Sequence record: PQ352352.2
Length of the DNA: 64,000 nucleotides
Reading direction: 5' to 3' (one strand)
Source of the DNA: Escherichia phage vB_EcoM_PTE-Eco15
The notes under the pieces were generated by a model. It was not told the DNA's origin. It saw nothing but the letters and a program-made list of their open reading frames with translations, and ran no database searches. The position numbers and the translations under genes are program-made. Positions 47,481-48,706 of the stretch are shown one piece after another; position 1 is the stretch's first letter, and the number at the start of each line of letters is the position of its first letter.

Positions 47481-48509
47481 ATGTCATCAATACCTTGGAT
47501 TGATAATGAGTTTGCATACCGTGCATTAGCTCATTTACCTAAATTCACACAAGTAAATAATAGTTCAACTTTTAAATTACGGTTTAGATGCCCAGTGTGT
47601 GGAGATTCAAAAACCGACCAAAATAAAGCCCGTGGATGGTATTATGGTGATAATAATGAAGGAAATATTCATTGTTATAACTGTAACTATCATGCACCAA
47701 TCGGAATATATTTAAAGGAGTTTGAACCTGATTTATATCGTGAGTATATCTTTGAAATAAGAAAAGAAAAAGGTAAAAGTCGTCCAGTAGAAAAACCTAA
47801 AGAACTTCCTAAACAACCTGAGAAGAAAATAATTAAATCTCTTCCGTCATGTGTTAGATTAGATAAACTGGCGGAAGACCATCCAATTATAAAATATGTA
47901 AAAGCTCGTTGTATTCCAAAGGATAAATGGAAATATCTTTGGTTTACAACCGAATGGCCTAAATTGGTTAATAGCATAGCACCGGGAACATATAAAAAGG
48001 AAATTTCTGAGCCTCGTCTTGTTATTCCAATTTATAATGCTAATGGAAAAGCTGAGTCGTTTCAAGGACGTGCATTAAAGAAAGATGCTCCTCAAAAATA
48101 TATCACCATCAAAGCTTATCCTGAAGCAACAAAAATTTATGGAGTCGAACGAGTTAAAGATGGTGATGTATATGTTCTAGAAGGACCTATAGATTCACTT
48201 TTTATTGAAAATGGTATAGCTATTACGGGTGGTCAATTAGACCTAGAAGTTGTTCCATTTAAAGATAGACGAGTGTGGGTCTTAGATAATGAACCTCGTC
48301 ACCCTGACACTATTAAACGAATGACTAAATTAGTTGATGCAGGAGAAAGGGTTATGTTTTGGGATAAATCTCCCTGGAAATCAAAAGATGTTAATGATAT
48401 GATTAGAAAGGAAGGTGCAACCCCTGAACAAATTATGGAATATATGAAAAATAATATTGCCCAGGGGTTAATGGCTAAAATGCGGCTATCTAAATATGCT
48501 AAGATTTAA
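47481..48509 (+). CDS. 61: DNA primase
   Basis: 342 aa; zinc ribbon CPVCGDSK...CYNC and TOPRIM-like region. Confidence 0.95.
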   Translation: MSSIPWIDNEFAYRALAHLPKFTQVNNSSTFKLRFRCPVCGDSKTDQNKARGWYYGDNNEGNIHCYNCNYHAPIGIYLKEFEPDLYREYIFEIRKEKGKSRPVEKPKELPKQPEKKIIKSLPSCVRLDKLAEDHPIIKYVKARCIPKDKWKYLWFTTEWPKLVNSIAPGTYKKEISEPRLVIPIYNANGKAESFQGRALKKDAPQKYITIKAYPEATKIYGVERVKDGDVYVLEGPIDSLFIENGIAITGGQLDLEVVPFKDRRVWVLDNEPRHPDTIKRMTKLVDAGERVMFWDKSPWKSKDVNDMIRKEGATPEQIMEYMKNNIAQGLMAKMRLSKYAKI

Positions 48510-48706
48510 ATCAACCCAACTAAAGCAAATGCTAAATCTACAAATGTATCAAGAGTAACTACTGGAATATTAATACCATGTGCAATTGCAACAGGTGATA
48601 GAATAAAGTTCCAGAGTAAAATTCCTACCATAGCAGAAATAGTAAAAGCTATACGTTTCTTATTACCTTTTATGGCATTAACAAGTGCCATTAATTTTTG
48701 TACCAT
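48506..48706 (-). CDS. Small membrane protein on the opposite strand (66 aa)
   Basis: Minus-strand ORF in the 61-56 intergenic region with its own AGGAGG Shine-Dalgarno 4 nt before the ATG; two hydrophobic segments. Confidence 0.45.
   Translation of the reverse strand: MVQKLMALVNAIKGNKKRIAFTISAMVGILLWNFILSPVAIAHGINIPVVTLDTFVDLAFALVGLI

Follow-up and report, generated by a model that had tools for sequence, protein, structure and literature searches.

In bacteriophage T4, lysis is accomplished by the holin T, the antiholins RI and RIII, the endolysin E and the spanins, with no lysis occurring in t mutants, and the exclusion genes of this phage, imm and sp, are early genes. A small lysis protein of another phage, the S68 pinholin of phage 21, consists of 68 amino acids and has two membrane domains, the first of which is able to leave the membrane. 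A further T4 open reading frame (ORF), dam.1, lies beside the primase gene 61 on the strand opposite the early genes, and here we describe its counterpart in a Tequatrovirus, Escherichia phage vB_EcoM_PTE-Eco15 (sequence record PQ352352.2), of which one stretch of 64,000 nucleotides (referred to as the window) was analyzed. The gene in question, hereafter the small gene, occupies positions 48506-48706 of the window on the minus strand. Our overall reading, which we hold with a probability of about 0.8, is that it is a genuine and conserved gene, the ortholog of T4 dam.1, and that it encodes a membrane protein made late in infection.

The T4 counterpart was located at 17738-17938 of AF158101, inside a 309-bp 'intergenic' space between dam and gene 61, and a tblastn comparison revealed that the T4 and window ORFs are equal in length and 98.5% identical in amino acid sequence, with a single I/V difference. 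This ORF is annotated as dam.1, hypothetical protein, in the T4T record HM137666 (ADJ39749.1), its UniProt entry is named 'Uncharacterized protein dam.1', and the proteins of T4T and of the window belong to one common 90% cluster of 156 members. In addition, residues 2-66 of the window protein matched positions 1-65 of the 65 in profile phrog_2024 (E=1.4e-31), a family of unknown function that was its sole match in PHROGs. On these sequence comparisons, the small gene is the ortholog of T4 dam.1 and a member of PHROG 2024. The 2-kb stretch around it is 99% identical to Escherichia phage vB_Eco_F26 (F26) and about 97% identical to T4. The T4 reference records AF158101.6, NC_000866.4 and MT984581.1 carry no annotation for the ORF, no papers on 'dam.1' were found in the searchable library, and no report on the 61-56 locus was found among the literature on T4 ribosome profiling, unannotated ORFs and gene 61 antisense transcription. 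Since the ORF has already been annotated as dam.1 in HM137666, it is not new, and it is known as a predicted hypothetical protein annotated in hundreds of T4-like phages. What the present analysis adds is the evidence for coding and selection, a conserved late box, the division into two subtypes together with their tandem arrangements, and the omission of the gene from the T4 reference records.

The small gene and the signals preceding it on its own strand are as follows.

48506..48706, minus strand: coding sequence of the small gene, 66 amino acids, ATG start and TAA stop, assigned by sequence as T4 dam.1 ortholog and PHROG 2024 member (from the ORF list); its sequence is MVQKLMALVNAIKGNKKRIAFTISAMVGILLWNFILSPVAIAHGINIPVVTLDTFVDLAFALVGLI
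48717-48711, minus strand: Shine-Dalgarno sequence AAGGAGG, 4 nt (ACAT) before the ATG at 48706-48704 (from reading of the sequence)
48736-48729, minus strand: late-promoter-like box AATAAATA, 22 nt before the ATG (pattern match)
48723, minus strand: predicted late transcription start with the 17-nt leader AGCAATAAGGAGGACAT (deduced from the published box position, -13 to -6)

We examined the coding capacity of the ORF by comparing its alleles and relatives. Among 15 distinct Tequatrovirus alleles, the numbers of variable sites at codon positions 1, 2 and 3 were 10, 3 and 14, respectively, and the ratio of nonsynonymous to synonymous change (pN/pS) was 0.17. Between genera and lineages, pS ranged from 0.58 to 0.87 and is saturated, and pN ranged from 0.22 to 0.38. 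The minus-strand frame of the ORF was open in every relative examined, and the other frames were not. Furthermore, the first gene of the unit was preceded in all lineages by AAGGAGG, AGGAGG or AAGGAG, placed 4-7 nt before its start. These comparative data indicated that the ORF is a genuine protein-coding gene under purifying selection. The initial annotation, which had proposed a 66-codon gene with a strong Shine-Dalgarno sequence of its own 4 nt before the ATG, was correct in both respects, and its central proposal, an antisense-oriented gene for a small hydrophobic protein, is supported by conservation, selection pattern and synteny.

It was also observed that the plus-strand frame sharing the phase of the gene 61 stop codon stays open through 48507-48746 in the window, where readthrough would add about 78 residues to the primase. 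Several close relatives, and the second of the two subtypes described below, have this frame interrupted, and an extension of gene 61 by readthrough was therefore rejected; because of the same interruptions, the open plus-strand frame is most likely a by-product of the coding sequence on the opposite strand.

The distribution of the small protein was then determined. By tblastn it was present in 692 phage records, 502 of which carried it at an identity of at least 90%, and the exact window protein occurred on 259 contigs. In Mosigvirus and Gaprivervirus the conservation falls to about 45-55% identity, and the opposite-strand position between genes 56 and 61 was retained in T4, F26, Mosigvirus, Gaprivervirus, Klebsiella phage Marfa and metagenomic T4-like contigs. 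Conservation in related phages, a point on which the initial annotation had let its proposal depend, was found together with synteny from Tequatrovirus through Mosigvirus, Gaprivervirus and Marfa to distant T4-like contigs. Pfam and NCBIfam scans of the window protein gave no match, a sequence search of the PDB returned only noise (E of about 0.5), and Foldseek against viral predicted structures retrieved only the relatives of the protein itself.

Two subtypes, with only about 20% identity to each other, were distinguished. Type A, to which the window protein belongs, has AIKGNKK near its N terminus, and type B begins with MGT(L/I)FYQIWKL. In an alignment of 23 sequences comprising both subtypes, W32, N33, P38 and G44 were invariant, all four being present in the window protein, and P48 was nearly so. 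Type A was found in phages of Escherichia, Shigella and Yersinia and type B in phages of Klebsiella, Enterobacter and Citrobacter, with both occurring in Gaprivervirus. The arrangements other than a single type A gene were as follows.

Gaprivervirus (L012 1995-2401; also L018 and L019): type A followed by type B, in tandem
One metagenomic T4-like phage (L043 2305-2698): type B followed by type A, in tandem
Klebsiella phages such as Marfa: type B alone, at the same position

The tandem pairs form a two-gene unit on the opposite strand, in which only the first gene is preceded by a late-type box. The second tandem copy of UPEC01 is mis-annotated as 'DNA packaging ATPase'.

A profile search of 1.84 billion representative proteins yielded only 16 clusters at E<=0.001, some of which are from more distant T4-like contigs that retain the synteny. 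Three distant members were found outside T4-like phages, each as a single small insert co-directional with its neighbors; their contexts were a position after tail genes, the edge of a phage-like island and a position before a RelA/SpoT-type gene. In the last of these (L052 129-1383, a short metagenomic contig), a 59-aa distant member with a weak PHROG match to a holin family lies 17 nt upstream of a 352-aa RelA/SpoT-domain gene. A lysis cassette was looked for around L051, L052, L053 and the element of Escherichia phage DCP80, with an ambiguous outcome, and the family gene in these surroundings is a small variable insert. The DCP80 element is related to that of L053 and does not carry the family gene. 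The DCP80 record itself (PQ671644.1; L057/L058) is classified as Gaprivervirus and is only 141 kb long, and it contains a block (tail-tip-like gene, endonuclease VII and endolysin) resembling the non-T4 element of L053. Because of this non-T4-like block in a 141-kb Gaprivervirus record, it may be a mixed or chimeric assembly.

Next, we considered the transcription of the small gene. The T4 late box spans -13 to -6, and among T4-like phages conservation is poor at position -13 (PMC1524935); a list of 50 T4 late promoters includes 32 with a perfect box and 9 with an A at -13, which is the most frequent accepted variant (PMC2988020). The minus-strand interval at 48710-48790, where a late or middle promoter had been envisaged, contains AATAAATA at 48736-48729, which corresponds to the late consensus TATAAATA with an A at -13 and thus matches it at 7 of 8 positions; the sequence upstream of it on the strand of the small gene reads ...acaATAAATAtataaagcaatAAGGAGGacatATG. 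The letters considered for a box mutant change AATAAATA to AATGCATA. The core heptamer, ATAAATA, was found 16-22 nt before the ATG of the first gene of the unit (33 nt in L047) in 10 of 11 lineages, within flanks that could not be aligned. Genomes that lack dam have the box as AATAAATA, and those with dam, such as T4, have it as GATAAATA, which in T4 precedes dam-side sequence; it takes the form CATAAATA in Gaprivervirus and the perfect form TATAAATA in Klebsiella phage Marfa. The heptamer was absent before the second gene of the tandem pairs, as expected for an operon. By shuffling, the chance of such a box was 1-4% per lineage, values that are not independent and may not be multiplied since the lineages are related.

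In the window, ATAAATA was three-fold depleted, with 14 occurrences on both strands versus 41.8 +/- 5.8 expected, and the octamers TATAAATA and AATAAATA occurred 4 and 5 times versus 10.9 and 15.4 expected, respectively. This depletion suggests that stray late promoters are selected against in the early region. One perfect box, at 49955-49962, precedes soc, a known late gene. Apart from this, 4 of the 14 heptamers are grouped on the minus strand in roughly 1 kb (41588-42607), inside the beta-glucosyltransferase gene (41520-42575), and no minus-strand ORF accompanies them. No sigma-70-like site was present within about 500 nt upstream of the small gene on the minus strand, and both scanning and reading of the sequence failed to reveal a sigma-70 or MotA-type promoter for it there. 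Because the box is conserved across lineages and otherwise depleted in the window, we reasoned that the small gene is probably transcribed late, in dependence on gp55; this comparative evidence is a stronger argument than the single match to the consensus. Downstream of the ORF, the minus strand showed no terminator-like site as far as 45500 (3 kb), and for this reason it is plausible that the late transcript runs antisense into gene 61. In T4, the predicted late start would correspond to about 17,720-17,724 on the plus strand of NC_000866. In a T4 dRNA-seq preprint (GSE255091; sampled before infection and at three times afterward), 22 antisense start sites are reported.

The predicted protein has a basic N terminus with a net charge of +5, and the part following its long helix has a net charge of -2. 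Hydrophobic stretches were recognized at about residues 19-42 and at 49-66 (mean Kyte-Doolittle hydropathy of 2.05, with two Asp), and the maximum hydropathy over 19 residues was 2.0. AlphaFold2, run with the 23-sequence alignment, gave a model with a mean pLDDT of 79.7 and helices at residues 2-12, 16-42 and 52-63, in which W32, N33, P38 and G44 are located at the outer end of the long helix and in the ensuing loop. Over the last 18 residues, type A is hydrophobic (mean of 2.05, with the two Asp on one face) and type B is not (0.57), and the window protein ends in ...DLAFALVGLI, with no basic residues. Of its tryptic peptides, LMALVNAIK is the only one of a size suited to mass spectrometry, the others being short fragments and one hydrophobic peptide of 48 residues, so that a negative shotgun result would say nothing against the protein. 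A protein of two hydrophobic segments had been described in the initial annotation; the description is accurate, but only the first segment is clearly membrane spanning, the C-terminal AlphaFold helix comprising 12 residues and the corresponding segment of type B not being hydrophobic. Since the charge is +5 before and -2 after the long helix, an N-in orientation in the inner membrane is pointed to. Thus, the protein is predicted to have one sure membrane helix and a short interfacial or periplasmic helix, the latter assignment being made because the second segment is not hydrophobic in type B.

The neighbors of the small gene and the putative signals on the opposite strand are given below.

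47481..48509, plus strand: gene 61, DNA primase, 342 amino acids, convergent with the small gene (ORF list and annotation of relatives)
48780..49295, plus strand: gene 56, dCTPase, divergent from the small gene (ORF list and annotation of relatives)
48720..48743, plus strand: putative middle promoter of gene 56, with the MotA-box-like TGCTTTA at 48720-48726, an 11-nt spacer and TATAAT at 48738-48743 (from reading of the sequence)
48672..48701, plus strand: weak hairpin, ATGGCATTAACAAGTGCCAT, with TAATTTTTGT after it, which might act as a weak terminator downstream of gene 61 (terminator scan)

The stop codons of gene 61 and of the small gene overlap inside the TTAA at 48506-48509. From the end of gene 61 (48509) to the start of gene 56 (48780), the gap is 270 bp, just as estimated in the initial annotation, which had also placed the ORF between these two genes and presented it as the lone exception in a co-directional array. 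The latter statement holds, because a scan of the whole window for other minus-strand ORFs of at least 40 amino acids outside plus-strand genes revealed none with a ribosome-binding site or a late-promoter motif.

The relation of the small gene to dam was resolved by comparison with T4. As stated in the initial annotation, dam lies between genes 61 and 56 in T4 and is missing here: tblastn with T4 Dam gave no match anywhere in the 64-kb window, and the two phages differ there by 879 bp. A reading in which the ORF fills the place of dam did not stand, since T4 has the ORF, named dam.1 in HM137666, alongside dam, and the small gene was therefore rejected as a dam replacement. Homology to T4 spans the whole ORF, breaks at its ATG and resumes just before gene 56, and in other phages a homing endonuclease gene occupies the dam slot. 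In the phage collection, T4-type Dam (at least 90% identity) was found in 182 records versus 502 with close dam.1, so that absence of dam is more common there than its presence. As judged from these alignments, the small gene is independent of dam, the small gene being the constant element and dam a variable insert between it and gene 56.

On the opposite strand, the late box of the small gene falls inside the 11-nt spacer of the gene 56 promoter, in which TGCTTTA is a putative MotA-box-like element by the MotA-box consensus, and both signals are contained in the same 25-30 bp or so (48718-48743). The two putative promoters are therefore, on sequence, divergent and interleaved. In T4, the sequence that aligns with this gene 56 promoter region carries the annotations replication origin oriA and gene 56 transcript. 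The hairpin at 48672-48701 lies inside the 5' codons of the small gene (MALVNAI); its folding energy is -8.9 kcal/mol (z = -1.6), a value equaled or bettered by 11 of 200 shuffles and not significant alone. The equivalent site is annotated as 'terminator' in Yersinia phage fPS-90, and the hairpin is restricted to the Tequatrovirus lineage. Being weak, not significant and confined to one genus, the plus-strand hairpin (48672-48691) was set aside as a conserved terminator. Two plus-strand sigma-70-like matches, at 48595-48622 (9/12, inside the ORF) and 48678-48706 (9/12, ending at the start codon), were at the background rate. An Rfam scan of 47400-49400 returned nothing relevant, and a test for a type I toxin-antitoxin arrangement (small hydrophobic toxin with its own antisense RNA) in that interval found neither an Rfam match nor a convincing promoter for a dedicated antisense RNA; as antisense partners of the small gene, only the transcripts of the flanking genes come into question.

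Taken together, the following course of events would account for the locus. RNA polymerase bearing gp55 would start late in infection at AATAAATA (48736-48729, minus strand), as suggested by a motif that is conserved here and otherwise avoided. The transcript, with a leader of about 17 nt and a strong Shine-Dalgarno sequence, would be translated into the 66-aa protein and would probably continue antisense into the 3' part of the primase gene, judging from the absence of a terminator-like site. The protein is predicted to insert into the inner membrane with its basic N terminus in the cytoplasm, its long helix at about residues 16-42 and its short C-terminal helix (52-63) at or beyond the periplasmic face. 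Since the invariant residues are gathered in the loop and in the periplasmic end of the helix before it, the working part of the protein (W32, N33, P38, G44 and the near-invariant P48) most likely makes contact with a partner located within the inner membrane or at its outer face. A role at the envelope at the end of infection, be it in the timing of lysis, in its inhibition or in protecting the infected cell, is a weakly favored guess, to which we give clearly less than an even chance. Still more doubtful is the full extension of this proposal, namely, that T-even phages including T4 carry a late inner-membrane protein which reference annotation, and in consequence most T4 genetics and omics, has missed and which acts at the end of infection (lysis timing or inhibition, or envelope protection), that its convergent transcript could help to silence the primase gene, and that subtypes A and B are adapted to the envelopes of their hosts.

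Several other explanations of the locus were weighed. That the ORF is a product of chance in an AT-rich spacer, or mirrors a plus-strand feature, might be supposed from the silence of the T4 reference annotations and from the plus-strand frame that is also open across this region of the window; yet interruptions of that frame occur in several close relatives and in subtype B, and none are seen in the minus frame, the substitution pattern suits coding in the minus frame, the start codon, Shine-Dalgarno sequence and promoter box are kept down to the 20% or so identity between the subtypes, and the hidden Markov model search returned full-length relatives of equal size. The chance of this explanation is next to nil, and as far as comparative sequence data allow it is already refuted. 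It is also conceivable that the convergent late transcript itself is what has been selected, silencing gene 61 as an antisense RNA or by transcriptional interference with the peptide being secondary, given that the convergent layout, with stop codons overlapping or a few nucleotides apart, recurs in many lineages and that the minus strand lacks a terminator-like site for 3 kb downstream. A purely antisense role is nevertheless contradicted by selection at the amino acid level, evident in the purifying selection and the invariant residues, and by lineages in which other genes have come to lie between the small gene and gene 61, namely, a homing endonuclease gene in DK-13, the paralog in Gaprivervirus and another gene in L047; in addition, the family members outside T4-like phages are co-directional with their neighbors. 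We consider such an origin of the locus quite improbable, although an antisense effect could be an added consequence of the protein gene. As for the fate of the protein, a long signal peptide might be cleaved after an AxA-like motif (VAIA|HG), freeing a 24-residue hydrophobic peptide into the periplasm. Across the family, position -1 is small (A, S or T), -3 is A or L, a conserved (H/Q/N)G follows and a Pro stands at -5, and the N region is basic. Typical signal peptides, on the other hand, have hydrophobic regions much shorter than the 24 or so residues here, the invariant W32 and N33 lie inside the helix, which is unexpected for a disposable signal, the homolog P0115 has F at -1, and AlphaFold gives one continuous helix through the site. 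Cleavage after VAIA is thus conceivable but unlikely, above all because of the invariant residues inside the helix, and we give it very small odds.

The nature of a membrane-anchored product leaves two further candidates. A holin or pinholin-like lysis protein, forming or regulating holes in the inner membrane, would be expected to be small and to have at least one membrane-spanning domain, as is predicted here (helix 16-42), and the small gene is also probably late. UniRef/BFVD lists the homolog from phage vB_EcoM_OE5505 as 'Holin', which is an unreviewed name; the distant member P0120 weakly matches the holin family phrog_3427 (E=5e-4); and two non-T4 relatives lie a few kilobases from a lysozyme or endolysin gene, one at L051 and the other in the DCP80 element related to L053, although the endolysin-bearing DCP80 element is without the family gene. 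The window protein itself has no holin-family match in Pfam, PHROGs or NCBIfam, its hydrophobic C terminus without basic residues is not the charged tail typical of holins, its gene is flanked by the primase and dCTPase genes and not by a lysis cassette, and T4 lysis is already explained by known genes. A true holin is thus unlikely, given the lack of a holin-family match, of a charged C-terminal tail and of a lysis cassette. A factor for superinfection exclusion or envelope protection, that is, a moron-like accessory membrane protein altering or shielding a target in the inner membrane or periplasm, would suit the predicted placement of the most conserved residues toward the periplasmic side, the way in which the subtypes track host groups, and the occurrence of the gene as an isolated small insert outside T4-like phages (after tail genes and at the edge of a phage-like island). 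A promoter that is late only fits this poorly, imm and sp of T4 being early genes, and no homology to the Imm, Sp, Cor or Sie families was detected in Pfam or PHROGs; the prospects of this explanation are likewise slim.

The reading preferred here, a conserved dam.1 ortholog encoding a late-made membrane protein, also has points that weigh against it. The T4 reference annotations leave the ORF out, and no library paper mentions dam.1. Late timing depends on a 7/8 match to an 8-bp AT-rich motif together with its conservation, and a motif of this kind is by itself no proof of a promoter; position -13 holds A, G or C in most lineages, with T confined to Marfa, lineage L038 is without the heptamer, and the relatedness of the lineages deprives the per-lineage chance values of independence. 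The membrane topology is a prediction, and the guess at function is accompanied by no match to any characterized family, the fold search returning only the relatives of the protein itself.

The small gene matters a little for work that relies on the T4 reference records, since mapping of reads or peptides to those annotations will not report a gene that is absent from them. It is the only opposite-strand gene in a long early/middle array and is present in almost all enterobacterial T-even phages, with what appears to be a conserved late promoter of its own. As a small late membrane protein of the best-studied lytic phage, if the reading is right, it would be an inexpensive, clearly defined gene to knock out; an effect of its loss on lysis timing, lysis inhibition or exclusion would add a new part to a classic system, and otherwise it would be one more small accessory gene. 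In one sense it is ordinary, as pipelines already call a hypothetical protein at this place in hundreds of T4-like genomes.

Compared with known systems, the small protein shares with the superinfection-immunity proteins Imm and Spackle of T4 that all are small phage proteins, those two being targeted to the envelope as is predicted here, and the Spackle gene is only 2 kb away in the cluster of the window (46393-46686); Imm and Spackle differ in being encoded by early genes on the early strand, and Pfam and PHROGs revealed no sequence relationship between them and the small protein. Class II holins and pinholins such as S68 resemble it in size, in the hydrophobic two-segment layout and in the probable late expression, and the first helix of the Mosigvirus homolog is rich in Gly and Ala (TAIAAIVVGGIISWNFGIAPLLVA), a further likeness to this class. 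In contrast to them, the small protein has no holin-family match, no charged C-terminal tail and no neighboring endolysin gene, and its second segment is short and, in subtype B, not hydrophobic. With late genes of the gp55 type (TATAAATA; e.g., soc), the small gene has in common the distance from its late-promoter-like box to the start codon, a short predicted leader, a strong Shine-Dalgarno sequence and AT-rich sequence after the box (PMC2988020), but its box has A and not T at -13, and it stands alone and in opposite orientation in an early/middle array. The closest counterpart is T4 dam.1, from which the locus differs in that dam, placed between dam.1 and gene 56 in T4, is absent here and that the box is GATAAATA in T4 versus AATAAATA here, and with which the small gene agrees in position and orientation relative to the 3' end of gene 61, in length, in the full-length profile match and in 98.5% of its amino acids.

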